From an uncultured Clostridia bacterium (GTDB lineage Bacteria > Bacillota > Clostridia > Christensenellales > UBA1242): 45,246 nucleotides of DNA. The notes beneath the pieces were generated by a model. It saw only the letters and a program-made list of their open reading frames with translations. It did not search any database and had not been told where the DNA came from. The stretch spans positions 1 to 45,246 of the forward strand of contig CANRGF010000002.1 of NCBI GenBank assembly GCA_947630075.1. The letters run 5' to 3'. The translations under genes were made by a program, and so were the position numbers. Below, one piece after another: positions 14,633-41,669 of this stretch. How positions within the stretch are numbered: position 1 is the first letter of the stretch; each line of letters starts with the position of its first letter.

Positions 14633-14664
14633 AAACAAAAAAAAGGCTTAATTAGCCTTTTTTT
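14633..14664 (-). terminator. terminator overlapping the rpmA stop (bidirectional shape)
   Basis: AAGGCT-taatt-AGCCTT flanked by A-runs and T-runs. Confidence 0.55.
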
Positions 14665-14935
14665 CTGCTGCTAAAATTGTTGCCACTTTTCTGCCTCTGC
14701 CATCGGTTTTAAACTTAACAACGCCGTCAACCAAGGCAAACAAAGTGTAATCATTGCCACACCCAACATTTTCGCTTGGATAGATTTTTGTGCCACGCTG
14801 ACGAACAATTATTGAGCCAGCCTTAACAAATTGACCATCGCCCGTTTTAACGCCAAGACGCTTTGATTCACTATCTCTGCCGTTTTTGGTGCTGCCGCCG
14901 CCTTTTTTATGGGCAAATAATTGAATATTAATCAT
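14648..14935 (-). CDS. rpmA: 50S ribosomal protein L27 with N-terminal pro-peptide
   Basis: [30 protein letters not shown]... is a Firmicutes-type L27 with the cleavable N-terminal extension. Confidence 0.95.
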
Positions 14936-15263
14936 TGCTAATCTCCTTTATTTTAATGTATTTTGCGTGGCCATCTCTAACCTCTTTCAATCCCAAACTG
15001 GCAGTTTTCATAAGCGTTTGTGCCAATTTGATTTCACCCTGACTTAGCCCATTAAGACTAACTGACAGAAGAGGAATATCTTCATCAATTTCACATTTTG
15101 CGGGCAACTTAAGCACTTGCTTTAGACCTATAATTAGAGTTTGCGCAATGCTAGAAACTGCGCTGCAAACAATATCCTTCCCACTCTCTGCATAGCCAGA
15201 ATGACCGGTTATTTCAATGTCCACTAAATTTGAATTTTTTTTAATAATTTTTATGTTTATCAT
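14928..15263 (-). CDS. prp: ribosomal-processing cysteine protease Prp
   Basis: Located between rplU and rpmA. Carries the GHSGYA and DIVCSAVS catalytic His/Cys contexts. Confidence 0.85.
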
Positions 15264-27772: not shown

Positions 27773-27803
27773 AAATAATGTGATAATATATGCAAGTAAA
27801 TTC

Positions 27804-27828
27804 GCCGGTATGGCGAAATGGCAGACGC
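27804..27828 (+). pseudogene. 25-nt 5' fragment of a tRNA-Leu gene (acceptor plus D-arm only)
   Basis: GCCGGTATGGCGAAATGGCAGACGC is identical to the two downstream tRNA-Leu 5' ends apart from the acceptor-stem differences. It is followed by unrelated sequence. Confidence 0.7.
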
Positions 27829-27956
27829 TCGTCACAACCTCCACCCTTTGCTTATTTGCTAGACGCAAATTAAGGCTTTTGGTGTGTTGCTCCTCTTTCC
27901 CAAGAACTTGCGTTTTGTGGGAGCCCTTAATCTTGTGCGTCTCCAAAACTAAATAT

Positions 27957-27996
27957 GCCGGTGTGGCGAAATGGCAGACGCACAAGACTCAAAATC
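27957..27996 (+). pseudogene. 5' half of the disrupted chromosomal tRNA-Leu(CAA) (attL side)
   Basis: GCCGGTGTGGCGAAATGGCAGACGCACAAGACTCAAAATC stops inside the anticodon loop. Its missing 3' half is at 41347-41392. Confidence 0.85.
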
Positions 27997-28027
27997 CTGC
28001 GAGGTTTGCCCTAAAAAATCTTAATAT

Positions 28028-28113
28028 GGCGGTGTGGCGAAATGGCAGACGCAGCAGACTCAAAATCTGCCGATAGCAATATCATGTCGGTTCGACCCCG
28101 ACCACCGCCACCA
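28028..28113 (+). tRNA. island-borne intact tRNA-Leu (anticodon CAA), CCA encoded
   Basis: GGCGGTG acceptor pairs with CACCGCC. Anticodon stem-loop GCAGA-CTCAAAA-TCTGC, long variable arm, GTCGG-TTCGACC-CCGAC T-arm. The acceptor differs from the split chromosomal copy (GCCGGTG/CACCGGC). Confidence 0.9.
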
Positions 28114-28117
28114 CAAA

Positions 28118-28160
28118 AACCCCTTAAAAATAGATGTTTTTAAGGGGTTCTTTATTTTTT
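28118..28160 (+). terminator. terminator after the island tRNA-Leu
   Basis: AACCCCTTAAAAA-tagatg-TTTTTAAGGGGTT followed by a T-rich run. Confidence 0.8.
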
Positions 28161-28170
28161 TATTGAAAAT

Positions 28171-28228
28171 ATTTTTTCTAACGGACTCCGTTAGAAAGCC
28201 CAATTTTTGCCCAAATTTATATCTTTTT
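28171..28228 (+). repeat. 58-bp perfect direct repeat, left copy (partner 41612-41669)
   Basis: ATTTTTTCTAACGGACTCCGTTAGAAAGCCCAATTTTTGCCCAAATTTATATCTTTTT is identical at both sites. Imperfect similarity extends about 30 nt further left (28141 / 41583). Confidence 0.9.
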
Positions 28229-28369: not shown

Positions 28370-29646
28370 TTACATTTCAAAATCTTGCGTTTTTCGCAAT
28401 TTTTTCTTCTCTTTTAACTGCTTTTCTAGTTCCGCAATTTCGTTTTCTAAAACTTCTTTATCCGACAAATTTGAATTGTTTTCAAAATCTAAAACGCCAG
28501 AAATAACATTTGCACTTGCAATTTTGCTTGAATAGTCCAAATGAGCATATATGTCCGCTGTGGTGTTGTAGGTGCTATGCCCTAGCCACTCTTGTATTTG
28601 TTTCATTTGCACTCCGTTTGCCAACATTAAACTTGCACAACTATGTCTTAAATCGTGAAAGCGGATTAATTTTAAATTGTTTTGCTTTTGTATAACCCTA
28701 AAATGTTGGGATAAATAATCTGGATAGTATAAAGTTCCAATATCATTAACGCAAACATAATCTAAATAGCGGTTGTCATAGGCATCTCCGCATAACTCTT
28801 TGTTTTTGCGTTGCCTTTCCTTTTCATTTAAAAGCATTTCTTCAATGTGTGGGATAAGTGGCAGCGTGCGGTTGCTTGTTTTGTTTTTCATTTTGTTTTT
28901 GCAAATCAACTTGCCTTTAATGCTTACCACTTTATGATTAATCTTAATTAATTTATTATTAAAATCTATTGAACTCCATTTTAAGCCCAACACTTCACTT
29001 CGGCGTAAACCATAATAGGCGGTTATGTGGATTATAAGTTCTAATGGGTCGCCCTTTATAACTTCAAACAATTGTTTTAGTTCATCTTTGTTGTAAAAAT
29101 CTGAGTGAAACTTTTCTTTTTTAGGGCGGTCAACAAAATCCGCAACATTTTTGAAATTAAGCCAAGTTTTATTGCGTTTTGCAATGCTTCTCGTAAAACA
29201 ACATGATAATGCATTACAGTGTTGCCTGTTTTCCCCTCTTTATATAAGGTATTGTAGTAAGTTTGAATGTCATAAGGTTTTAGTTCGTTTAGGGTTATTT
29301 GGTTTTTTGCAAAATATTTGGTCATCTTTTTAATTACAAAGCCATAACTTTCAAAGGTCAGTTCTTCCACTTCGTTTTTGCGAGATTGATACCATTGGTT
29401 AAGATATTCGTTTAATGAAATGTCGTTGGTGGGTTTGGCGTGAGTTTCAATTACATTTTCGTTGTCCTTATATTTTTGCAAAATTTCACTTAACTTTTGT
29501 TCCGCCTTTCGCTTATTGCCCTTTTCTTCATAACCTGTTGCAATCCACTTTCGTTTGTCTTGCCCAAACTCATCTTTGTAAGACAACACTGCATAATATT
29601 TCCCATTTTTAACTTGTAAACTTGCTTTCATTGTCCGCCTCGTCAA
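28370..29646 (-). pseudogene. int: tyrosine integrase split by a 1-nt frameshift in a homopolymer
   Basis: The N-terminal ORF (29077-29646) has an arm-binding plus SAM-like domain (MKASLQVKNGKYYAVLSYKDEFGQDKRKW...). The C-terminal ORF (28370-29071) has the catalytic R...HxxR...H...Y residues (GLRRSE, HDLRHSCAS, LGHS, DIYAHL). Adding one base to the T5 run at 29148-29152 gives a continuous ...SKNVADFVDRPKKEKFHSDFYNKDELKQLFEVIKGDPLE... Confidence 0.85.
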
Positions 29647-30974: not shown

Positions 30975-33900
30975 TTATTTGTTATTATTTGTAAATTTCT
31001 TTTTCTTAATTACTAATGTTATAGTTATCGAAATAGTCGCAATTGCTAAAACGGCAAACACCACTATTAGTATGTTCCTGCCAATGTTTGATTTGCTAAT
31101 TTTAACTCCACATATAAATTCCCCTGTTTTATTAGTTGTGAATTTCAAAGAATCCCCAACAGATTCATGTGCAACCTCTTGATATTCACCATCTAAGTTT
31201 TGCCATAAACCATAAGAGTCCTTTGTTTGACAATTTATAATTACTGAGTAGTCCCCATTTAAATTATTAATAGATTCATTGTCTAATATAATGCTAATTG
31301 TGAAGGAAAATTCTTGTTTAAATTTTTTGTTCTCAGTGTTATCATAATTTAAATTAACAATTATTTCTGCACATTTTTTGTGGCTATCTTTGAAGAATTT
31401 CATAGCATTATTATCAAAAATTAATGTTGAATTAGAAAACTTAATTTCAAGTGAAGAATTGTCTTGTAAATCGGAAATGTCAACAACTGCATTATTAATT
31501 GTTGGCAAATTAGAAACATCAATAAGTTGCAAATTTTCATTTACTATCTTAATTGTATTATACAACAAATATGTAGAATAGAATGTTTGGTCGCCAGTAA
31601 CTTTTTGTCCTACTTCATAATTTTCCCATTTATCAAAAACATATTTATAAAACTCTGTTTTCGACTTTGTAGGAATGCCATATTTATTTATATTATAAGT
31701 TATTACGCTATCATAAGGCAATTTGTCAACATAAATTACATTATCGTTACCATCTATCCATGTTATATTGTACAACCGAATTATCGAATTAAAGGTGGCA
31801 GTATAAACTTCATCTTTTGTAACAGGTTCAATTTGTTTATCCCAATACGCAAAAGTATAAGTGTAGTAATTATCTTGCAATTTGGTTGGAATTCCATATA
31901 ACTCTTCATTGTAAGTCGGAGTTTCTTGATATGTATAGAATTCATTGTAAATTTCGTTTCCATTGCCATCTACCCAACTAATTTTATAATAAATAATTTC
32001 TGTATCGTACAATGCATTAACTTTTAAGACGTAATTGCTAAATTGATTAAAAATATCATTAACATTCTCGCCCACTAAAATTTTATCCCATTGTGAAAAT
32101 GTATATAAATTTCTAAAATCACTATATGTATGACTAAATTTAAATCCTTCAATTGAATCATAATAATGATAGGTCTTTGTTGTAATCAAATCACCAGCAT
32201 CCCCTATCTGTTGCGAGCCATCGAAATCGTAACCATAATAATATTCTATTGAATATTCATAATAATGTTTGCTAAAAATTGGATAATAGTGTGCTTCACA
32301 TTCTACGTTATTCAAATTAGGCGTCCACCCAGTACAAACATAAGTAAAGTAATTAGAATCTTCTGATTCTTTCGTCGGCAAAGAATAGTCATCAGAATTA
32401 AAGGTTGGCATTGTGCCATATTCCAAATTTTCACTGTAAATTAAGTTGCCCGTAGCATCATACCATGAAATTAAATATTTTCTTATTGTTGCATTATATG
32501 TGGCAACAATTGCCATATCGCCAGTGCACACGAGGTTTGAAACATCTTCGCCATTATGTTGCCATGTGTGAAAGTTAAAATCGTGTTGAATATCACTTGG
32601 CCTTGTAGGGTTTGGAGTTGGGAGCTCTATTTGTTGATTATAATGCTGACCGGTTATCTGTTTAAAAATGTCTCCCTCATCTCCAATTATTCCTGAACTA
32701 TCATAATCATAGCCATAATAAAATTTTATTATGTATTCAACATAGGTCGTAGAATAATCATTAGCAACAAATATGCGATCAGCCCATATGTTTTTAAAAT
32801 CTTCAGGATTTAGAACATCGTTATAACCATATCTTTTCCAGTTTGTAAATGTGTAGTTGTAAGTTTCGTCTGAAAAAGTCGTTGGAACAACAACATCGCT
32901 TCCGCCCTTATAATAACTTTTATCTATTATCCTACCATCGTCAAATTGAAAGGTTATCAAATTTAATGGTAATGTGCAATAAATTTTGAAATTTGGATTC
33001 TTGACATCATCGTAAACATATGTATATTTGTCAGTAATGAATTGGCCAAATGGTCCATCATAGTCTTTATCTATATAGATATATCTAATATATGATGCCC
33101 CGAAAGAATTTCCATTAATTAAATTCTCATTGTTGCCCAAAATGCAATCTTCCAATTTTTCACAACCAATAAAAGCATTTTCCTCAACTTTTTTAACATT
33201 GGATAAATCAACAATTTCAAAAGCACAATTATAAAATGCAAATGCGCAAATTGTATCACAATAACTAAAATCGAACAGCTTTAAATTTTTACAGTTTCCA
33301 AAAGCATCTTTAGGAATAACTTTAAGTTTTTTAGGATTTAAAACTTCAATTAACGATGAGCAACCATAAAAATTGTTAAATGTATTGTTATCTCCTTCGA
33401 ATGTTGAACAGTTAGAAATATCTATGCTTTGCAAACTTTCGCAACCCCAAAAAGCATATTGCCCAATAGAAGCCACATTTTCTAAATTAATTGATTTTAA
33501 ATTTTTACAATCTATAAAGGTTCTGCTTTTTATAATTTTTATTTCACCGCTTAACAAAACATTGGTTAAATTTTGGCAAGAATCAAAAGCCTGCTCTTCA
33601 AGCTCAATACAACTAGATAAATCAGCATTAACTATTTTTTTACAGTTCGACAATGAGGATTTGCCAACAACTTTACAATTAGATAGATCTAAATTAAATA
33701 AATTATAACAATCTTGAAAAGCGTCTTTTGCAATAGAAACTATGTTGCCTATTTCTAACTTTTTTAAATTAAAGCATCTGCCAAAAGCATTCTCACCAAC
33801 TGTTATACCGTTTTTATTTTCATCAATAAACTCCACATTAATACTTTCTAGTGTTGGTGTGTTGTAAAAACAAAAATCACCAAGACCAGCAAATCTATAA

Positions 33901-34376
33901 GATATTCCTTTTTCAACATAATACTGAGGAATTATAATATTAGCTTCATTGCCACTGTAAGATTTTAAAATAAATGTGCGATTACCATAATCTTTTGAAA
34001 CATAAAAGTTTGATAAATTAGGCACTTCAAAAATCGCATGTATTGTTATATTCTTATTTGGCATTGTAAAACTTGAAAAATTTTCTGCTATTGGCAAATT
34101 TGTTTTTTGTGCTTGTTCGTCTAAATAATAAAGTTCTTTCAAGTAAGTAGAATTCTGGGCTGTATGGTACACAAAGATTTGATCGCCATAGCATGCCTCG
34201 GTTATTTCGCTCTGCAAAGCATTTCTAATTGCAATTGATCCATCACCATTAATAATATTTTTTATGTAATATTTTATTGGCGTATAATTTATGGTGATTA
34301 TTACATTTCTATTTGGCATACTAAATGTGTAAAAACCGTTTATAAAATCATTTGTAATGTTTCTTTCATCCAGCAA
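30975..34376 (-). CDS. C-terminal part of the giant surface protein: BspA-type LRR (LRR_5), about 7 Listeria-Bacteroides B-repeats, C-terminal TM anchor
   Basis: LRR units (e.g. FGRCFNLKKLEIGNIVSIAKDAFQDCYNLFNLDLSNC). Repeats with Y.F..W signatures (YTFTNWKRYG, FNFHTWQHNG, YVCTGWTPN, YTFAYWDKQ, YVFDKWENY). Tail NILIVVFAVLAIATISITITLVIKKKK. There is no signal peptide and only a TTG start, so it is probably not an independent gene. Confidence 0.7.
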   Translation of the reverse strand: MLDERNITNDFINGFYTFSMPNRNVIITINYTPIKYYIKNIINGDGSIAIRNALQSEITEACYGDQIFVYHTAQNSTYLKELYYLDEQAQKTNLPIAENFSSFTMPNKNITIHAIFEVPNLSNFYVSKDYGNRTFILKSYSGNEANIIIPQYYVEKGISYRFAGLGDFCFYNTPTLESINVEFIDENKNGITVGENAFGRCFNLKKLEIGNIVSIAKDAFQDCYNLFNLDLSNCKVVGKSSLSNCKKIVNADLSSCIELEEQAFDSCQNLTNVLLSGEIKIIKSRTFIDCKNLKSINLENVASIGQYAFWGCESLQSIDISNCSTFEGDNNTFNNFYGCSSLIEVLNPKKLKVIPKDAFGNCKNLKLFDFSYCDTICAFAFYNCAFEIVDLSNVKKVEENAFIGCEKLEDCILGNNENLINGNSFGASYIRYIYIDKDYDGPFGQFITDKYTYVYDDVKNPNFKIYCTLPLNLITFQFDDGRIIDKSYYKGGSDVVVPTTFSDETYNYTFTNWKRYGYNDVLNPEDFKNIWADRIFVANDYSTTYVEYIIKFYYGYDYDSSGIIGDEGDIFKQITGQHYNQQIELPTPNPTRPSDIQHDFNFHTWQHNGEDVSNLVCTGDMAIVATYNATIRKYLISWYDATGNLIYSENLEYGTMPTFNSDDYSLPTKESEDSNYFTYVCTGWTPNLNNVECEAHYYPIFSKHYYEYSIEYYYGYDFDGSQQIGDAGDLITTKTYHYYDSIEGFKFSHTYSDFRNLYTFSQWDKILVGENVNDIFNQFSNYVLKVNALYDTEIIYYKISWVDGNGNEIYNEFYTYQETPTYNEELYGIPTKLQDNYYTYTFAYWDKQIEPVTKDEVYTATFNSIIRLYNITWIDGNDNVIYVDKLPYDSVITYNINKYGIPTKSKTEFYKYVFDKWENYEVGQKVTGDQTFYSTYLLYNTIKIVNENLQLIDVSNLPTINNAVVDISDLQDNSSLEIKFSNSTLIFDNNAMKFFKDSHKKCAEIIVNLNYDNTENKKFKQEFSFTISIILDNESINNLNGDYSVIINCQTKDSYGLWQNLDGEYQEVAHESVGDSLKFTTNKTGEFICGVKISKSNIGRNILIVVFAVLAIATISITITLVIKKKKFTNNNK

Positions 34377-37210
34377 AATCTAATTTGTAAGCCATGGTTT
34401 TGTATATTGCTATCTATTAAGATTGTGTAAGCTTGTTTGGTTGATGATCGCAAAATGTTTGTTGTAAAAATGTTGCCATATTCATCCACCGCTTGAATAA
34501 TATAATAGAACCTTCCTTCTAAAAAATTTGTAAAATAATAATTTTTATTTAAATTCAAACCTAAAAAATTTGTTTCATCCACCAAAATATCTTCGTCATC
34601 CAAAATATCATTATTTGAAGCAAATACCTTTATTACCACATTGTAACCACTAACCTCAACACAAATATTTTCATCGGTTTTTTCTTGTAAATAGGTTGAT
34701 ATATCCACAAAAACGAAATTGTTATATCCTTTATATTGGCTAATAAAATCCACATCGTAACAATAAATTGTGCAACGATGCGACGACGATATTGATAAAG
34801 AATCTTTATATAATTCTAATTCATTATCACCCAAAAACAAATAATCTAAATTGCTTGAGTTTGCAAATGCATTATCGTAAATTGATTTTATTTTTGGCAA
34901 TTCAACAAATTTGAGATTTTTGCACCCAAATAAGGTGTGTTCATAAAGTTGTTGTAAACCTAAGCCGATGAAACTTGTTATGCCACTTCCATCAAATGCA
35001 AATTCGCCTATTGATTTTATATTCTCGTTTAAAACAATGTCTTTTTTGAAAGCAACACAATCTTCAAAAGCATATTCATCAATAAAATTCAAATTGTCCC
35101 AGCTAATACTTATTTCTTTTAATTTTTTAAAGCCAGAAAAGGTTGCATATTTAATTGAACAAACATTTGGTGCGTAAATTTTTTCTAAATTAAAGCATCC
35201 CTCAAATGTGTAGCTCCCATAAAACCCATACATTGTTGAAGATGCAAGAAACGCCTCACGCAATTCACTAACTTGTGGCAAATAAAGTTCATTCAAACCA
35301 AAGCAATATTGAGCAACATATTCCGCCACCGTGGAGTTTAATTTAATGCTTTTAAGGCTGCCACAACAAACAAAAGGATAATATCCTATTGTTAAATCAT
35401 TTTCAGCAACAACAGATTCAATATTTAAACCATAAAATAAATTTTCGGCAAGTCCCTTAACCTTTACCCCATTAACATATTCTGGAATAACAATATTTTT
35501 TAAGCCGCTCGTATATTTTGTAAGCATGCCAAAACTATTAATTTCAAAACCCACACCAGTATCATTGCAATTAGAGGTGTTTTTTAAATATTCCACTTCA
35601 TAAATGGCGCTATGACCACGAATAATACCATCACTATCAAAAATATAAATAACAAATCTTAAAAATGCAGAATCATTAATTTCTATTGGCTGTATATATT
35701 CTTTGTAAGAAATCAGTGTTGGGAAAGAGCCATCAAGCGAATAATATATTTTAGCTGTATATTTTCCTTTATAATTGCTGTTTATTGTTACATCTAATTT
35801 CTCGTTAAATTTATATGTGTCATTTACTTCGCCATAATTTAGGGTTGGATTAAATTCATTTTCTTCATTTCCTAATGCCAAAGCCATTGAGGGTATGCCA
35901 TCCCCATACTCATCATCTCTTCCTACATCACCAAAATCGTAGGTGTTAGATTTTATTGCTTGCTCAACAGTTTGCACATCGTAATCTTCCCCATAATATG
36001 TTGCATACAGTGCCACCAGCCCTGTTGCGTGTGGGGTTGCCATGGAAGTTCCGCTTATAACTGCATACTTTCCACCTGTGGCAGAAGTGTATATCTTTTC
36101 GTAAGTGCTATCGTCTGGCACACAACTTAATATATTAGTCCCTGGTAAACACAAATCAACATAACCACCGTAATTTGAATAATAGGCAATATATGGGAAA
36201 TTTTCATAATATTCATTTTGAGAAAGTGCAGATATTGTAAGTGCATTTTCACAATTTGCTGGGCTACAATCTTCTACATAATAATTATCGTTGCCCGCCG
36301 CCACTACTGGCATAATGTTGTTTTCATATGCGGAGTTCACTGCATTTTGCTCATCTTCGTTAACCCCATATCCGCCCAAACTCATATTATATGCAACCAC
36401 ATTGGTTCCTTTTTGTTTAAGACTAACAACATATTCCATACCGGAAACAACATTTATTGTTGATCCTGAGCCTTCTGCATTTAACACTTTAACGGGAATA
36501 ATTTTTACATTGTCAAGAGTTAAATCTACAATTGTGCCAGCCACATGTGTACCATGCGAATTATCATCTTCAAACGGATACGAACTTTCGCCATTTGAGT
36601 AGTGTTCACTCTCATAATAACTAACTCCAAATTCATACGCTATTCTTCCAGCCAAAAATTCATTATCTGTATCAATTCCCGTATCTATAACTGCCACATA
36701 AATTTCAGGCAGATTTTCAACCGAATTATTGTATTTTTTTATGATTTCCTGTTGATAAGCATCTACTCCAAGTAAATCAGCACCCCAGGTTAAATGATTC
36801 AAGTTTTCTAGATCTGAATAATCCGAATTGACTGCCTCTATATCATCAATTGTAATTTCCGAATCGATAAAGGCATATTCGACATACTTGCAAGATGAAA
36901 AATATTCTAAAGCGGTTTGGGCCTCTACTTTTGTATTATATTGAAAAACATTTAACCCTGCAAAGCCTGAAGCTTGTTCTATACAATTCTTGTCTTCCAG
37001 TTTTCTATAAGACTTTACAATTATCCTACATTCATAATTGTATGTGTAATGTTCATTTATGTATGCTAGTTCTTTTCTATAACCCCAAAAGTCATTTACT
37101 TCGGCCATTGCATAACTTTCTTCGCCTTGTTGCGAAATAATTATACAAGGTAAAAACAATGATATTATTATGCCAATGACAACAATTAATCGTTTAAACT
37201 TTATCTTCAT
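34340..37210 (-). CDS. N-terminal part of the giant surface protein: signal peptide, I9-like pro-domain, S8 subtilase, BspA-type LRRs
   Basis: Start trimmed to the ATG at 37210 (MKIKFKRLIVVIGIIISLF) with a GGAAGG RBS. Catalytic triad contexts VAVIDTGID, HGTHVAGT and SGTSMATPH, with oxyanion NMSLGG. Confidence 0.8.
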   Translation of the reverse strand: MKIKFKRLIVVIGIIISLFLPCIIISQQGEESYAMAEVNDFWGYRKELAYINEHYTYNYECRIIVKSYRKLEDKNCIEQASGFAGLNVFQYNTKVEAQTALEYFSSCKYVEYAFIDSEITIDDIEAVNSDYSDLENLNHLTWGADLLGVDAYQQEIIKKYNNSVENLPEIYVAVIDTGIDTDNEFLAGRIAYEFGVSYYESEHYSNGESSYPFEDDNSHGTHVAGTIVDLTLDNVKIIPVKVLNAEGSGSTINVVSGMEYVVSLKQKGTNVVAYNMSLGGYGVNEDEQNAVNSAYENNIMPVVAAGNDNYYVEDCSPANCENALTISALSQNEYYENFPYIAYYSNYGGYVDLCLPGTNILSCVPDDSTYEKIYTSATGGKYAVISGTSMATPHATGLVALYATYYGEDYDVQTVEQAIKSNTYDFGDVGRDDEYGDGIPSMALALGNEENEFNPTLNYGEVNDTYKFNEKLDVTINSNYKGKYTAKIYYSLDGSFPTLISYKEYIQPIEINDSAFLRFVIYIFDSDGIIRGHSAIYEVEYLKNTSNCNDTGVGFEINSFGMLTKYTSGLKNIVIPEYVNGVKVKGLAENLFYGLNIESVVAENDLTIGYYPFVCCGSLKSIKLNSTVAEYVAQYCFGLNELYLPQVSELREAFLASSTMYGFYGSYTFEGCFNLEKIYAPNVCSIKYATFSGFKKLKEISISWDNLNFIDEYAFEDCVAFKKDIVLNENIKSIGEFAFDGSGITSFIGLGLQQLYEHTLFGCKNLKFVELPKIKSIYDNAFANSSNLDYLFLGDNELELYKDSLSISSSHRCTIYCYDVDFISQYKGYNNFVFVDISTYLQEKTDENICVEVSGYNVVIKVFASNNDILDDEDILVDETNFLGLNLNKNYYFTNFLEGRFYYIIQAVDEYGNIFTTNILRSSTKQAYTILIDSNIQNHGLQIRFCWMKETLQMIL

Positions 37211-37229
37211 AATTGTCCTTCCTATGGAC

Positions 37230-37238
37230 ATTATATCA
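37230..37238 (-). promoter_or_regulatory. extended -10 promoter element (TGATATAAT) for the protease gene
   Basis: The minus strand reads TGATATAAT about 20 nt upstream of the ATG at 37210. No good -35 is present. Confidence 0.4.
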
Positions 37239-37337: not shown

Positions 37338-38168
37338 CTAATTATTCTCATCAAACAATTTTATCTGTTCGGGCTTTGCCGTGCGGACTATGTAGGCGTC
37401 TGGGTCTTTTTCTTGCGGAGTAAGTTCAAGGTTTGGGGCAAAGGCACGCAAACAAGCTTTGTAATAAACTTGCTTGTTTGTTGGGCGGAGTAGGGTTAAG
37501 CAATCTTGCAGGTATTTCCCCCAATCCTGCCACTTATCCTCATTGCCGCAATTGTTTAGTTTGCCAATTTTGTAGTGGTCCACACAGTCCATTTCAAGTG
37601 TTTTCTTAATTAATTTTAAGCTTTCGTCTGGCTCGATGGTCGGCTCAAAACTTGCAAAAGTTTTTATGCCATTTTCGTGCAAAATTTTTAGTGTTTCCAA
37701 TCTTTCACTTGGCAAACTTGCAAAAGGTTCCCAAAACCTGCTTTTCTTTTCATCCAAAAATGTTAATGTTGTGCCAACGGTTATTCTATCTTCAAATTCT
37801 TTAAACAAATCTAAATCTCTCAGCATGTTCTTTCCGCCTTTGCTTAAAACCGCAACCGGCACTTTATATGCGTTAAGCATTTTTAGAACTTCTCGCACAG
37901 TTTCGCCATTGTCCGCGCTATCGCAATAGCAATCGCCAACAAAAGATAGCAAAACTTGCTCGGTGTATGTGTTTTTCTTTAAATCTTGCTCTAACAATTT
38001 TAAAATATTTTTTCTGGGCGCAGGTTTGCCAAAATAGTCCTCACCTTTCTTTTGCAAAGTGTGAGGTGCATAACAATATCTGCACCTATGCGAACAACCA
38101 ATGTAAATATTTAGCGCATACGGGCTATATTCTCTCGCCATGCCTGTTGGCCTATAAATAATGCTCAT
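37338..38168 (-). CDS. radical SAM protein (SplB / COG1533-like)
   Basis: IGCSHRCRYCYA is a CxxxCxxC cluster near the N-terminus. 276 aa, with no SPASM-type extra Cys clusters visible. Confidence 0.7.
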   Translation of the reverse strand: MSIIYRPTGMAREYSPYALNIYIGCSHRCRYCYAPHTLQKKGEDYFGKPAPRKNILKLLEQDLKKNTYTEQVLLSFVGDCYCDSADNGETVREVLKMLNAYKVPVAVLSKGGKNMLRDLDLFKEFEDRITVGTTLTFLDEKKSRFWEPFASLPSERLETLKILHENGIKTFASFEPTIEPDESLKLIKKTLEMDCVDHYKIGKLNNCGNEDKWQDWGKYLQDCLTLLRPTNKQVYYKACLRAFAPNLELTPQEKDPDAYIVRTAKPEQIKLFDENN

Positions 38169-38211: not shown

Positions 38212-38631
38212 TTAACAATCATATTGTAAGGATTTTATTTTATCCCAATTATCTTTTATTGTGACACCATCAATGGAAAAGTTAGATTTAAATTCTGAAA
38301 ATGTTTTGTAAGACACAAAATTGTTTGTATCAATCTCCCAAAGAGTATAGTCATTATGAACTGATAATTGATACTTTTTCCCTTCAAATTTAAATGTAAA
38401 ATCAAAACCACGTTTTACTAAATTTAAAAATTGGGGATATGTTGGTAAAAAACTTTTCCCTAATTTAAAATATCTTTTTGCTTGATTTAAACTTATAAAA
38501 TTAGGCGGATTAATAGCGTTAGGATAAGATGTAGAATATTTATCATTATTCCACCCGCACTTTTTGCATGTGCCATTGCCCCATGCATCAATTTTTAAAG
38601 TGTTCTCACACACATCACATTGTTTTTCCAT
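38212..38631 (-). CDS. zinc-ribbon (CPCC-like) protein with an immunity-like C-terminal domain
   Basis: ATG at 38631 with a GAGGA RBS. MEKQCDVCENTLKIDAWGNGTCKKCGWNND. The C-terminus YKTFSEFKSNFSIDGVTIKDNWDKIK is paralogous to the end of 38645-38927. Confidence 0.55.
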   Translation of the reverse strand: MEKQCDVCENTLKIDAWGNGTCKKCGWNNDKYSTSYPNAINPPNFISLNQAKRYFKLGKSFLPTYPQFLNLVKRGFDFTFKFEGKKYQLSVHNDYTLWEIDTNNFVSYKTFSEFKSNFSIDGVTIKDNWDKIKSLQYDC

Positions 38632-38644
38632 ATTTCCTCTAATT

Positions 38645-38927
38645 TTAATCTGCAAAGTTTAATTTAATTTTATCCCAAATATCTTTTACTTTTACGCCAT
38701 CAATGTTTATTTTGTCGGCTAATTCTTTTAACGACTTATAATTTTGATATCCTTCATCTTTTTCCATTCATAAAATTCGAAACCATCAAATTTGGTTATG
38801 CCAAACTTTCGCTTTTTATAAAAGAATTGCATTTCCAAACCATAGCCCACAATTTCCGCAAATTCATCATAAGTTAATTTTTGCTTTTTTCAACTTTTTC
38901 CATTAGTTCAAAACATTTTTCATTCAT
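38645..38927 (-). pseudogene. immunity-like ORF broken by two 1-nt homopolymer frameshifts
   Basis: ATG at 38927 (MNEKCFELMEKVEK). Adding one base to the T6 run at 38885-38890 and one to the T5 run at 38759-38763 gives ...KQKLTYDEFAEIVGYGLEMQFFYKKRKFGITKFDGFEFYEWKKDEGYQNYKSLKELADKINIDGVKVKDIWDKIKLNFAD. Confidence 0.65.
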
Positions 38928-38932
38928 ATTAA

Positions 38933-39259
38933 TCACTCCACACATTGAATTTCAAAAGATTTGGCATTTAGATAAATTGTTGGAAAATCTTGATTGTCAA
39001 AAATTATTTCAATTAAATTTTTATTAGATTTATTAATCCAAATGTTTAACAAAAAATCATTTTGCGTTTGTAAATTTAAATTATATTTCATATTACAAAC
39101 ATTATAAAATGAAACTTTAACCAGATTAGAATGTAGTTGTTTTTTTAGCGATTCAGTTGTTTCTATTGTAAATGAAAAAGTCTTTGATTGATTATCAAAT
39201 TCAAAGTCATACACTCTACAATCATGGAAATTATACTTTTTTAAATCGGTTAATTTCAT
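38933..39259 (-). CDS. hypothetical 108-aa protein, candidate cognate immunity or partner of 39256-39579
   Basis: Its start overlaps the upstream stop by 4 nt. Small, acidic and beta-rich, with no motifs recognised. Confidence 0.5.
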   Translation of the reverse strand: MKLTDLKKYNFHDCRVYDFEFDNQSKTFSFTIETTESLKKQLHSNLVKVSFYNVCNMKYNLNLQTQNDFLLNIWINKSNKNLIEIIFDNQDFPTIYLNAKSFEIQCVE

Positions 39260-39579
39260 TGTTTTCCCCTCCTTAATTCTTCCATTAATTTCAAAAATTC
39301 TTCATATGTTAAAGCAGATTCTGGTGCATGCCTAGGGCTAGGATTCCCATTTTTGTCTAGATACATATCCTCATTCCCCGTCATATTGGGGTTTTCAACA
39401 TGCCAATGCCCAGGATCGTTATTTCTTGGTGGATCATATCTTACTTTTATTTCGGTTTTATTATCCACATATTCTCTGTGTCCATGAATTCTCGCTTGCG
39501 GATGAGTAACTTCTCTATATTGACCCTTTTGACTAAAACTCCCGCCTCCGCCGCCAAAAATTTGAATGTTGATTTTCAT
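39256..39579 (-). CDS. 107-aa His-rich protein with an L27-like (Prp-site) N-terminus
   Basis: ATG at 39579 overlaps the ParB-like stop (ATGA). MKINIQIFGGGGGSFSQKGQYREVTHPQARIHGHREYVDNKTEIKVRYDPPRNNDPGHWHVENPN... Confidence 0.6.
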   Translation of the reverse strand: MKINIQIFGGGGGSFSQKGQYREVTHPQARIHGHREYVDNKTEIKVRYDPPRNNDPGHWHVENPNMTGNEDMYLDKNGNPSPRHAPESALTYEEFLKLMEELRRGKQ

Positions 39580-40613
39580 TGCAATTCCATCCATTCATCA
39601 TGATTGTAGGGGAAAACTTTCAACCTTCCACCCATTTTAGGAAATGGCTTTTCATAACATATTATAGCACTTGGCTCAATTCTTTGCAACATTTCATTAT
39701 ATCCTTTCATAAATTCTTCTTCTATCTTCGTTTTACCATAAGTGGACACAGCAACTATTGAGCCTTTTTCAATACCATCAAAACAAAAATCAAAACTTCT
39801 TTCATCTCCCCATTCAACAGTTGGAATGCACCTTAAACCAAGACTTTGAAAATAAGCTCCGCACCATCTATTTTTAAAAGTGTTTTTAATTTGTAAAGAT
39901 AAAGGCATATCTATATAAATACTATAATCTGGAGATAACAGACAATAATATTGCTTTAATTTTTCAACTGCCAATTCTGGATGAGAATAAACGTAATCAA
40001 ACCTATAATCATATGTAAAGAATTGAATAGTTTTATCAGTATTTTTTATATCATTATATTTTGCATTGTTGAAATTCATAAGTTGTATTTTATTTAAATC
40101 TATGTCTTGTTTCTTAATTAAAGGCATTTCATATTTGCCAACCATTTTAAATTCGTTTCTAACAAGTTTTTGTTTGTTGATTTTTAATAACTCATTATAA
40201 TATTCATCATTTTTTTCTACTATCTCATTATATTTACTATTTTCAATCCCAAAATCTTCAAAATTAAAATTTTGTAATTGTTTTAACTCGTCAAAAAGCA
40301 CGCCATCATCAAATCCTGTTTCCAAATTTGTTGAATTATGAGCAATAACATAAGCTCGTTGTTCTTCTTTTGTTAAATGGTCCAACCTAATACAAGGCAA
40401 AGTTTTAATCCCTAAAAGTTTTGCTGCTTCCACTCTCCCATTTCCTTCTAAAACCACATTGTTTTCGCCTGCAATTCCAATCGGGTCGTTAAAGCCAAAT
40501 TCTTCAATTGAATTTGCAATATGCCTAATTTGTTGTTTGGTGTGTATTTTTGAATTTTTATCATAATTATTTAATGTGTTGATGTCTATATACTCAATTT
40601 TTAAATCTTTCAT
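39576..40613 (-). CDS. ParB-like N-terminal (Srx-fold) domain fused to a DUF4417-like domain
   Basis: The N-terminus IANSIEEFGFNDPIGIAGENNVVLEGNGRVEAAKLLGIKTLPCIRL fits the ParB-N pattern. The C-terminal half resembles DUF4417 (recognised from memory, not searched). Confidence 0.6.
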   Translation of the reverse strand: MKDLKIEYIDINTLNNYDKNSKIHTKQQIRHIANSIEEFGFNDPIGIAGENNVVLEGNGRVEAAKLLGIKTLPCIRLDHLTKEEQRAYVIAHNSTNLETGFDDGVLFDELKQLQNFNFEDFGIENSKYNEIVEKNDEYYNELLKINKQKLVRNEFKMVGKYEMPLIKKQDIDLNKIQLMNFNNAKYNDIKNTDKTIQFFTYDYRFDYVYSHPELAVEKLKQYYCLLSPDYSIYIDMPLSLQIKNTFKNRWCGAYFQSLGLRCIPTVEWGDERSFDFCFDGIEKGSIVAVSTYGKTKIEEEFMKGYNEMLQRIEPSAIICYEKPFPKMGGRLKVFPYNHDEWMELQ

Positions 40614-41029
40614 TTCTTTCTCCTCATTTCTGGCGTAAGGCGCAAATCTTTAAGAATTTTTTCTAAATGTTTGTTGCAATCTTGCAATGTTTTGTAGTGT
40701 TCATTTTCTTTAACCATAACTTTTGGAGTCTTCCCGTCTGAACAAATCCCTGTTACAATGCGAATATATCTATCTGGCTTTTTGTTATATTCTTTCCATG
40801 CCCTATCCCTCATAATTTTAATTTGACAATATTGCCATATAAGTTCGGCATCGGTTGAAGATAATCTATATTTTATGCTTCGTTTTAATGTTGCAACAAT
40901 TTCGGCATATGCCGCCTTTTCTTCATCCGACAAAAATTCTGGGATTTGCAAAACTTCATCATTTATTCTCGCAGTTTCTTGCATTGCCTTTTTGTTTTGT
41001 TCTATCATTTGCTTTTCTAGTAAGTCCAT
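40610..41029 (-). CDS. terS: phage terminase small subunit, P27 family
   Basis: 139 aa. ...TDAELIWQYCQIKIMRDRAWKEY... and the C-terminal LKDLRLTPEMRRKK fit the P27-family pattern. Confidence 0.65.
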   Translation of the reverse strand: MDLLEKQMIEQNKKAMQETARINDEVLQIPEFLSDEEKAAYAEIVATLKRSIKYRLSSTDAELIWQYCQIKIMRDRAWKEYNKKPDRYIRIVTGICSDGKTPKVMVKENEHYKTLQDCNKHLEKILKDLRLTPEMRRKK

Positions 41030-41336: not shown

Positions 41337-41392
41337 ACTCAAAATCTTGCGATGGCAACATCATGTCGGTTCGACCCCGACCACCGGCACCA
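41337..41392 (+). pseudogene. 3' half of the disrupted chromosomal tRNA-Leu(CAA) (attR side; first 10 nt duplicate the core)
   Basis: ACTCAAAATC-TTGCGATGGCAACATCATGTCGGTTCGACCCCGACCACCGGCACCA. Joined to 27957-27996 it gives an 86-nt tRNA with perfect acceptor (GCCGGTG/CACCGGC) and anticodon (CAAGA/TCTTG) stems. Confidence 0.85.
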
Positions 41393-41611
41393 AGCCGCAA
41401 ATGGTTTGTGCGTGAACTTGTATCCATTTGTGTGCAAAGATGGCGTAACTCACATTCACGCATGGGCGATTTTTAAAGTGGGCAACTCCCACCGCTATAC
41501 CAAATTTAATCTTCTTTAAAGCAATCTTCGCTTTTCCGAAGTGTATAATAAAAATATTAACAAAAAAACAACCTCTATCTTTTAAGGGGTTGTTTGTTTT
41601 TTATCAAAATT

Positions 41612-41669
41612 ATTTTTTCTAACGGACTCCGTTAGAAAGCCCAATTTTTGCCCAAATTTATATCTTTTT
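41612..41669 (+). repeat. 58-bp perfect direct repeat, right copy
   Basis: Identical to 28171-28228. It includes the last three sense codons and the stop codon of the ABC-F gene. Confidence 0.9.

Follow-up and report, generated by a model that had tools for sequence, protein, structure and literature searches.

Why a small gene of a mobile island should begin with what looks like the pro-peptide of its host's ribosomal protein L27 is the question raised by a locus in the 45,246-nt stretch of DNA analyzed here (the window), from an uncultured Clostridia bacterium. The gene lies on the minus strand at 39256..39579, in an island at a tRNA-Leu gene, and encodes a 107-residue protein (the target) with the N-terminus MKINIQIFGGGGGSFSQKG. 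Based on comparisons across genomes and on structure models, we propose that its product is a polymorphic-toxin-type pro-effector, with an L27-type leader, a Gly tag, and a toxin domain, and that the overlapping 108-aa gene encodes its immunity protein. The pair would be the exchangeable cassette of a module, in the order small terminase (TerS), ParB-DUF4417 protein, effector, and immunity protein, carried by tRNA-Leu islands of Christensenellales-like gut Clostridia. Taken whole, this explanation is, in our estimate, evenly poised between holding and failing, and its parts differ in strength.

Three segments make up the target protein: a leader of 8 residues, a Gly stretch that is disordered, and a domain of ~85 aa. 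They map as follows (AF2, AlphaFold2; pLDDT, predicted local distance difference test).
39256..39579, minus strand: effector gene, 107 aa; an open reading frame (ORF) with 181 homologues in an exhaustive HMMER search.
39556..39579, minus strand: leader, residues 1-8, MKINIQIF; copies P5-P1 of the L27 Prp site; pLDDT <50.
39520..39555, minus strand: Gly-rich tag and linker, residues 9-20, GGGGGSFSQKGQ; counterpart of the GG(R/G)G found right after the initiator Met in related cassettes.
39307..39519, minus strand: toxin core, residues 21-91 (alignment A2); AF2 pLDDT >90.
39268..39306, minus strand: extra C-terminal helix, residues 92-104, specific to a subgroup (alignment and AF2 model).

An in-frame ATG at 39594 would lengthen the protein by MDGIA; we set the start at 39579 because the homologues begin there. 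An earlier reading, made from the letters of the window and without database searches (the sequence-only reading), had described a Cys-free, His-rich protein of 107 aa, translationally coupled to a small downstream ORF. Both points hold: the translation contains no Cys and six His, and the stop codon overlaps the ATG of the 108-aa ORF by 4 nt (ATGA), with AGGAGG 8 nt upstream. The ATG of the target likewise overlaps the stop codon of the upstream ParB-DUF4417 gene by 4 nt (ATGA).

The leader invites comparison with two genes of the host chromosome within the window.
14648..14935, minus strand: host L27 with the pro-peptide MINIQLF↓A (Pfam Ribosomal_L27, 8.9e-37).
14928..15263, minus strand: host Prp cysteine protease, the presumed maturase (Pfam Peptidase_Prp, 5.4e-24).

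The Prp gene sits between L21, just upstream, and L27. Set side by side, the N-termini read MKINIQIF↓GGGGGS in the target and MINIQLF↓AHKKGGGS in host L27, and the six-frame translation of the 45-kb window yields just two matches to the strict motif N[IL]Q[ILF]F[AG], at these two N-termini (mean in 200 shuffles, 0.015). Both the L27-like N-terminus and the neighborhood of Prp and L27 noted in the sequence-only reading are thereby confirmed, the latter also by the Pfam matches. That reading had taken loss of the motif among homologues as grounds for abandoning the idea; instead, 47 non-redundant homologues retain M-x-[IF]-x-[LI]-Q-L-F↓G-G, with the consensus M(-7) K [IF] [NLV] [LI] Q L F ↓ G G [RG] G x [GS] S. 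Gln is found in 44/47, Leu in 41/47, and Phe in 44/47 of these proteins, Met stands exactly at -7 in 38/47, and Gly occupies +1, +2, and +4 after the leader in 47/47. The Leu, Gly, and Arg codons of the leader region vary freely at synonymous positions across the 47 proteins, which argues for selection on the peptide rather than on a DNA element.

The published L27 motif for Prp is (D/N)LQ(F/L)F' (PMC9405229), and Phe at P1 is needed for Prp binding (PMC12324487). Each residue of P5-P1 in this site has its match in the leader (N, L/I, Q, L, F). In the window, leader and host L27 have the less common N-I-Q in common, and the leader equals the host L27 extension in length to within one residue. 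For comparison, loci spanning only +/-6-10 kb were fetched, 80 of them through DUF4417, a domain encoded by the upstream gene, from species-representative genomes; in ~1 Mb of fetched loci, the leader stands at a true N-terminus in GGxG proteins and L27 only. No other leader-bearing protein, such as a scaffold or capsid protein, was found in the fetched loci, whose flanks end before the capsid genes. Residues 1-16 of the target are disordered in the AF2 model. These features, a disordered N-terminal extension ending in (D/N)-L-Q-(F/L)-F in a host with Prp and a long L27, make removal of the leader by Prp at F↓G somewhat probable.

The likeness to L27 could also have arisen for another reason: the short hydrophobic N-terminus may serve folding, translational coupling, export, or contact with DUF4417 or a procapsid, and be retained or cut in some other way. 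Such a role would sit well with Gly instead of Ala at P1', and it has a precedent in the 80alpha scaffold, whose N-terminus is needed for assembly while its cleavage is dispensable (PMC5744158). A protein of Streptococcus phage IPP48 with a region of ~70 aa before an internal 'KINFTLGGGRG' implies that varied N-terminal extensions are tolerated, and S. pneumoniae has a second protease capable of L27 processing (PMC12324487). We nevertheless regard this explanation as improbable, given the P5-P1 identity, the near-equal length, the N-I-Q common to leader and host L27, and a leader end that coincides with the end of the initiator Met in other clades. Besides the HNH cofactor taken up below, two readings were considered and rejected. 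For a double-glycine (C39) export leader, 8 residues are far too short against 15-30, the leaderless forms start MGG, and there is no C39 transporter in the loci. For a leader that is a by-product of gene overlap, the overlap with the DUF4417 gene is only 4 nt.

The register of the leader becomes apparent when the target is compared with the genes that occupy the same slot elsewhere. Two genes precede it.
39576..40613, minus strand: ParB_N + DUF4417 protein, 345 aa (Pfam DUF4417, 2.5e-57; phrog_940, 1.6e-81); its stop overlaps the effector start.
40610..41029, minus strand: P27-family small terminase, the first gene of the module (Pfam Terminase_4, 4e-6; TIGR01558, 1e-7).

The ORF after DUF4417 was tabulated in each of the 80 loci; 12 of them matched the ParB part only, which leaves 68 true DUF4417 loci. 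The next gene starts with M-GGRG or leader-GG(R/G)G in 56/68 of these (82%). The start M-G-G-R-G accounts for 36 loci, in Streptococcus, Finegoldia, Granulicatella, Ruminococcus, Eubacterium, Erysipelotrichaceae, Lachnospiraceae, and others, and M-x-[IF]-x-[LI]-Q-L-F-G-G-[RG]-G for 20. These 20, from metagenome-assembled genomes (MAGs) labelled Clostridia, Christensenella, or Ca. Onthoplasma, are all the loci with a DUF4417 at least ~59% identical to that of the window. Most telling is the register: the end of the leader coincides exactly with that of the initiator Met in the leaderless clades, so that a Prp cut at F↓G would give the same Gly-Gly-(Arg/Gly)-Gly N-terminus. Methionine aminopeptidase normally removes Met before Gly, and the leaderless M-GGRG proteins would accordingly begin with GGRG; host Prp, cutting after Phe8, would expose the same Gly-Gly N-terminus in the target.

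Behind this shared N-terminus, the cargo changes. Besides the present toxin family, it includes Ntox50 (1.3e-18), a papain-fold glutamine deamidase toxin (Gln_amidase, 2e-14), a 'PNSxYT...YDxNGKP' family with a weak Ntox24 match, and several unnamed families, and some loci hold tandem arrays of two or three effectors. The conserved order of the module is TerS, ParB-DUF4417, effector, and immunity protein, with the effector/immunity pair as its variable part. The clearest pair is the window and locus L014, from a rabbit-gut MAG: the DUF4417 domains are 99% identical and the leader MKINIQIFGGGGG is identical, while the L014 cargo differs from that of the window and is followed by a CPCC protein. 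Replacement of the cassette behind a constant N-terminus (L014 versus the window), together with orphan CPCC and FYKKRKFG genes, is the behavior of a polymorphic toxin. Whether the tag and DUF4417 also work together is, from this gene order, an even call. Fusions of ParB with DUF4417 have been described as enriched in phages and of unknown function (bioRxiv 10.1101/2025.10.10.680097). The AF2 model of the DUF4417 domain (39579-40169; pLDDT 93.8) gives dozens of sub-threshold Foldseek matches to tRNA-guanine transglycosylase (E 0.04-0.2, with probability reaching 0.91 and TMq reaching 0.49), which we treat as a lead only; DUF4417 might be a TIM-barrel-like enzyme of base-exchange or glycosylase type. 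Our searches found no literature that links DUF4417, the GGRG N-terminus, or an L27-type leader to toxins in the part of the literature that was searchable, and a keyword check of PMC3482391 and PMC5576092 found no mention of DUF4417, the GG(R/G)G tag, or the L27-like leader.

Some loci depart from this arrangement. ParB_N sequences 69-96% identical to the first 128 residues of the window's protein occur without DUF4417 in 12 genomes (L034, L043, L046, L048-L051, L053, L054, L061, L063, L090); the ParB module seems to be shuffled among C-terminal domains. In L012 (6076-6822; gp29 of Streptococcus phage IPP48), L038, and L074, DUF4417 is followed by a protein of ~250 aa with an N-terminal region of ~70 aa that ends '...KINFTL↓GGGRG...', an internal leader-like junction before the Gly tag. 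A 2.9-kb Methanobrevibacter MAG contig (L089, 1408-2410) carries a DUF4417 gene followed by an MGGRG gene; it represents an archaeal virus or else an artefact of binning. Standalone toxins of the target's family with other conserved N-termini (MSKGLSYxYxGTKGHI..., MGAGxSGLYNNTKG...; L009-L011, P0169-P0214) stand directly after a DUF4417-only gene, outside recognizable prophages.

To what kind of protein the tag and leader are attached was answered by the exhaustive HMMER search, which was needed because a word-indexed protein search with the target recovered only the target itself. The search returned 181 relatives of 80-3454 aa, and the aligned region, target residues ~18-90, lies at their extreme C-terminus. 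Its signature is T-H-P ... G-H-R ... R-F-D ... D-H-[YW]-H-x-x-N-P-N ... Y-L-D-K-N-G-N-P ... S-H-[IL]-x-P, with H58, H60, N63-P64, Y73-L74-D75-K76, G78, and P80 as the conserved core residues (alignment A2). Long members add RHS repeats, an Rhs-associated core, PT-HINT, PT-TG, or WXG100; short standalone forms also occur, and one member lies within an Rhs orphan array beside an Imm53 gene. A C-terminal module behind varied N-terminal domains is the defining architecture of polymorphic toxins (PMC3482391), and here one C-terminal domain is common to proteins with different trafficking or pre-toxin N-termini. The target itself has no signal peptide or known trafficking domain, and a Pfam scan of the 107-aa protein found no MuF (SPP1 gp7) domain.

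The family is without a curated name. Searches of Pfam, PHROGs, NCBIfam, PADLOC, and PDB sequences with the target gave nothing significant, in keeping with the failure of the sequence-only reading to place it; the best library match, DUF7200 at E 0.038, recurs in just 2/63 family members, and scanning these 63 yielded no Pfam or NCBIfam model for the domain. The structure prediction called for in that reading succeeded in part: residues 21-104 are modeled with confidence (AF2 pLDDT >90), and Foldseek gave no match at E<1e-3 against PDB and BFVD, its best being the CDI complex 5t87 (E~1, TM 0.28-0.40), which we do not count as evidence. The conserved His-x-His, Asn, Asp-Lys, and Ser-His (H58, H60, N63, D75, K76, S88-H89) point to a small hydrolytic toxin that might be a nuclease or RNase; with no structural neighbor found, any activity named for it is a guess. 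An hhalign comparison of the toxin core with the 'PNSxYT' cargo and with Ntox50 revealed no relationship (probability 13%). The core nevertheless shares Y-x-D-K-N-G-x-P with unrelated cargoes (L014 864-1133 and others; 14 columns, hhalign probability 13%), which could be convergence or a common interaction motif.

The sequence-only reading had offered a second identity, a degenerate HNH endonuclease cofactor acting with the P27-family TerS in cos packaging, and HNH cofactors do accompany P27-type terminases in cos phages. The target is His-rich and adjoins the P27-type TerS region, as such a cofactor would. Yet neither it nor the 63 family members match an HNH or Tox-HNH model at E<=0.5-1. Canonical members end at S-H-I-x-P, helix 92-104 being confined to the target's subgroup; the canonical domain has no helix after its beta-hairpin, so that the final element needed by a beta-beta-alpha-metal finger is missing. 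The same slot holds unrelated cargoes that include Ntox50 and the deamidase, and the domain is present on Rhs and WXG100 toxins and has a hypervariable neutralizing partner. The cofactor identity was not borne out, and we consider it highly improbable.

A toxin of this class should be accompanied by an immunity gene, and the genes just downstream of the target fit this expectation.
38933..39259, minus strand: 108-aa immunity partner; coupled through ATGA, and of the same family as the gene after a Hint-linked toxin.
38645..38926, minus strand: YEMQFFYKKRKFG-type orphan immunity gene; two frameshifts at A-runs.
38212..38655, minus strand: CPCC zinc-ribbon orphan immunity-type gene, 147 aa (Pfam Cys_rich_CPCC, 4e-7).

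Between islands recovered from unrelated metagenomes, identity is 70-75% for TerS, 62-80% for ParB-DUF4417, and 77% for the radical SAM protein, compared with 31-63% for the toxin, and the downstream protein is past BLAST recognition or swapped for an unrelated 250-aa protein. The partners of ~108-123 aa form one fast-evolving family, a member of which also stands, in a different context, after a toxin copy linked to Hint (hhalign probability 94%, E 1.2e-7). In a second case, L094, where the toxin copy is Rhs-linked, the partner shows no significant relation to that of the window. Each cargo class has its own partner family, the behavior expected of an immunity protein. With an immunity-type gene immediately downstream that co-varies with the toxin, we consider a toxin module with cognate immunity very probable. 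Of the functions floated in the sequence-only reading, the toxin/immunity type is thus supported by comparative evidence, namely a core that serves Rhs, Hint, PT-TG, and WXG100 toxins as their C-terminal module and the hypervariable, cargo-specific partner. As to a switch of activity by the host protease, also floated there, what the data support is the position of the leader, at which a cut would create a Gly-Gly N-terminus. The connection with DUF4417, the exchange of cargoes, and the orphan immunity genes were beyond the sight of that reading.

The next two genes appear to record an earlier cargo. CPCC proteins follow the 'PNSxYT' cargo in L014, L020, L021, L024, L025, L026, and L028, and intact YEMQFFYKKRKFG-type homologues follow it in L016, L031, L032, and L033. 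The CPCC and YEMQFFYKKRKFG genes just downstream of the window's pair therefore represent both partner types of the cargo class of L014, and we read them as orphan immunity genes left by cassette replacement. Elsewhere, a 325-aa protein (P0270) is a natural fusion of a CPCC zinc-ribbon domain to DUF4417 and so links an immunity-type CPCC domain physically to DUF4417.

Where the toxin acts is harder to decide, and the main rival to our proposal keeps it inside the cell. There it would belong to a toxin-antitoxin, addiction, or abortive-infection module, with the 108-aa partner as antitoxin and ParB-DUF4417 as sensor or regulator; the toxin would be freed on island loss or phage infection, and the leader would only delay or tune activation. 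Satellites often carry defense cargo beside terS, and the toxin, small and lacking any secretion signal, has a neutralizer tightly coupled behind it. DUF4417-only cassettes exist outside phage contexts, and Ntox24-type domains appear in toxin-antitoxin systems as well (Zhang et al., PMC3482391). On the other hand, the toxin gene precedes the neutralizer, PADLOC assigns none of the cassette proteins to a defense family, a partner gene is wholly absent from many Streptococcus versions, and the prophage cassette heads a late packaging operon. Cargo and partner are, moreover, swapped as a unit behind a constant tag in near-identical backbones while orphan immunity genes accumulate, a signature of competition between cells or mobile elements. 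On balance, we hold this rival to be unlikely.

The polymorphic-toxin reading that we favor looks instead to the packaging context. Directly downstream of the DUF4417 + GGRG pair in true prophages come TerS, the large terminase (TerL), portal, and MuF; among 56 large downstream ORFs there, ~20 are TerL, 14 portal, and 8 MuF or minor-capsid proteins, and the MuF genes are separate genes downstream of the cassette. In the island family of the window, TerS is upstream of the cassette and head genes are lacking, as in satellites that borrow helper capsids. Packaging in the phage head is predicted for MuF toxins (PMC3482391, PMC5576092), T4 internal proteins share only a short capsid targeting sequence that is cut off by the head protease (PMC3012670), and Prp processes the capsid and scaffold proteins of 80alpha and has its motif on other phage proteins for reasons that are not known (PMC5744158). 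These precedents make delivery inside particles a reasonable model, for which the tie to the packaging operon is circumstantial. More speculatively, the tag may act with ParB-DUF4417 at DNA packaging, the effector leaving in phage or transducing particles and harming recipient cells without the immunity gene, as for MuF toxins and T4 internal proteins. By analogy, we advance delivery in virions or transducing particles tentatively, as rather doubtful.

A broader version, which we think quite unlikely, is that DUF4417, often fused to a ParB CTPase fold, and the GGRG tag constitute a hitherto unrecognized effector-loading system of Firmicutes phages and satellites. Diverse toxins and effectors would be marked by a GG(R/G)G N-terminus, set free when Met is removed or, in one clade, when Prp cuts; ParB-DUF4417 would recognize the tag at the start of packaging so that effectors travel with the DNA, and Prp would be a general maturation protease co-opted by mobile elements for cargo as well as capsids.

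Several observations weigh against the account as a whole. At the leader, P1' is Gly in 47/47 leader-type proteins, and to our knowledge all documented Prp sites have Ala there; in streptococci, which possess both Prp and a long L27, the cassettes lack the leader, which is thus dispensable for cassette function. The link between DUF4417 and the GGRG tag is one of gene adjacency only, and DUF4417-only cassettes also lie outside recognizable phage contexts. At the toxin, in addition to the lack of a structural neighbor in PDB and BFVD, the near-invariant His89 is replaced by Ala or Thr in the target and three close relatives, and activity might therefore be altered or lost; all four have Arg-His five residues upstream. 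A tblastn search with the target against 50,697 GenBank phage records gave no match, and an IMG/VR scan with alignment A3 gave no toxin-domain relatives. As to the island, no capsid protein was found among the ORFs scanned, which agrees with the sequence-only reading, no replication module or repressor was identified, and the integrase is frameshifted.

The island itself is delimited by copies of the tRNA 3' end, and its remaining assigned genes are as follows.
28058..28113, plus strand: attL, the 3' end of tRNA-Leu(caa).
41337..41392, plus strand: attR, a 56-nt copy of the tRNA-Leu 3' end, 91% identical.
28370..29646, minus strand: tyrosine integrase with one frameshift at an A-run (KKK-KF), adjoining the tRNA (Pfam Phage_integrase, 5e-23, and a SAM-like N-domain).
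37338..38168, minus strand: radical SAM protein (Pfam Radical_SAM, 1.7e-11), 77% identical to that of L003/L004; a neighbor of the cassette in some islands.

On the minus strand the order is TerS, ParB_N + DUF4417, the target, the 108-aa ORF, the broken small gene, CPCC, radical SAM, and two surface proteins. The A-run frameshifts in the integrase and in the YEMQFFYKKRKFG gene could be real decay or homopolymer sequencing errors. The radical SAM protein (37338-38168; 10794-11624 in L003/L004) bears a distant likeness to the PA0069/Rv2578c family and to 'mobile pair protein B'. Two huge surface-protein genes occupy about half of the island (30975-37231), encoding an S8 subtilase with BspA-type leucine-rich repeats (LRRs; 963 aa) and an LRR protein with a C-terminal membrane anchor (1133 aa), an unusual cargo for a TerS-bearing island. 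The insertion site bears marks of its own. A stretch downstream of the tRNA that takes in the final codons of the flanking ABC-F gene is duplicated just inside the left end of the island as a 90-nt direct repeat, 89% identical (28139-28228 and 41580-41669), which suggests an earlier imprecise excision or a tandem insertion. Three copies resembling the 5' half of tRNA-Leu (27792-27843, 27945-27996, 28016-28067), upstream of and overlapping the sole tRNA-Leu called by ARAGORN, may be remnants of repeated integration at the site.

What is new here is the combination of uncurated toxin and immunity families, a DUF4417-linked cassette with a minimal tag, and a clade capped by a ribosomal-protein pro-peptide. 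If the proposal is correct, it would add to the polymorphic toxins a new class whose hallmarks are a tag just a few residues long and an obligatory DUF4417 neighbor, in place of a large trafficking domain. Members of this class are widespread in gut Clostridia, in streptococcal prophages, and in related elements. Several more unnamed cargo families are supplied as well. DUF4417 and its ParB fusions would gain a concrete, testable partner. The same cassette with an L27-type leader or a bare Met is also a natural experiment on Prp, with the exact cut site predicted; it extends the candidate substrates of Prp past L27 and capsid proteins and bears on why phages carry the motif (PMC5744158).

Among known systems, the island resembles the SaPI/PICI satellites in its size (~13 kb), position at a tRNA, tyrosine integrase, own TerS, and lack of detected capsid genes; it is unlike them in having no recognized repressor, primase, or replication module, a frameshifted integrase, and two large surface-protein genes. 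The leader resembles those of the Prp substrates L27 and 80alpha capsid and scaffold proteins (PMC5744158, PMC9405229) in being an extension of ~8-14 residues that ends (N)-L/I-Q-L/F-F, in occurring on non-homologous phage or satellite proteins, and in a host whose Prp lies between L21 and L27; here, however, Gly-Gly rather than Ala follows the putative cut, and the carrier is a toxin domain instead of a structural or ribosomal protein. The T4 internal proteins (PMC3012670) offer an analogy, as diverse small effectors that share a short N-terminus, which in T4 is removed by a protease, and that are co-delivered with DNA; there is no homology, and T4 uses its own prohead protease and a scaffold core, whereas the protease here would be a ribosome-maturation enzyme of the host. 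Closest are the polymorphic and MuF toxins (PMC3482391, PMC5576092), with their constant N-terminus, exchangeable C-terminal toxins, cognate immunity, and orphan immunity genes; with MuF toxins in particular, the cassette shares Ntox50-type cargo and a location beside the terminase, portal, and MuF genes of temperate phages. As judged by sequence, the gene has the testable features of a polymorphic toxin/immunity pair and does not belong with the MuF toxins, the HNH cofactors, or the double-glycine peptides. What sets the cassette apart from MuF and polymorphic toxins is that it carries no MuF, Rhs, LXG, or other trafficking domain, that its constant part is just the few residues of the GG(R/G)G tag, to which a leader of 8 residues may be added, and that the gene is always coupled to a DUF4417 gene.

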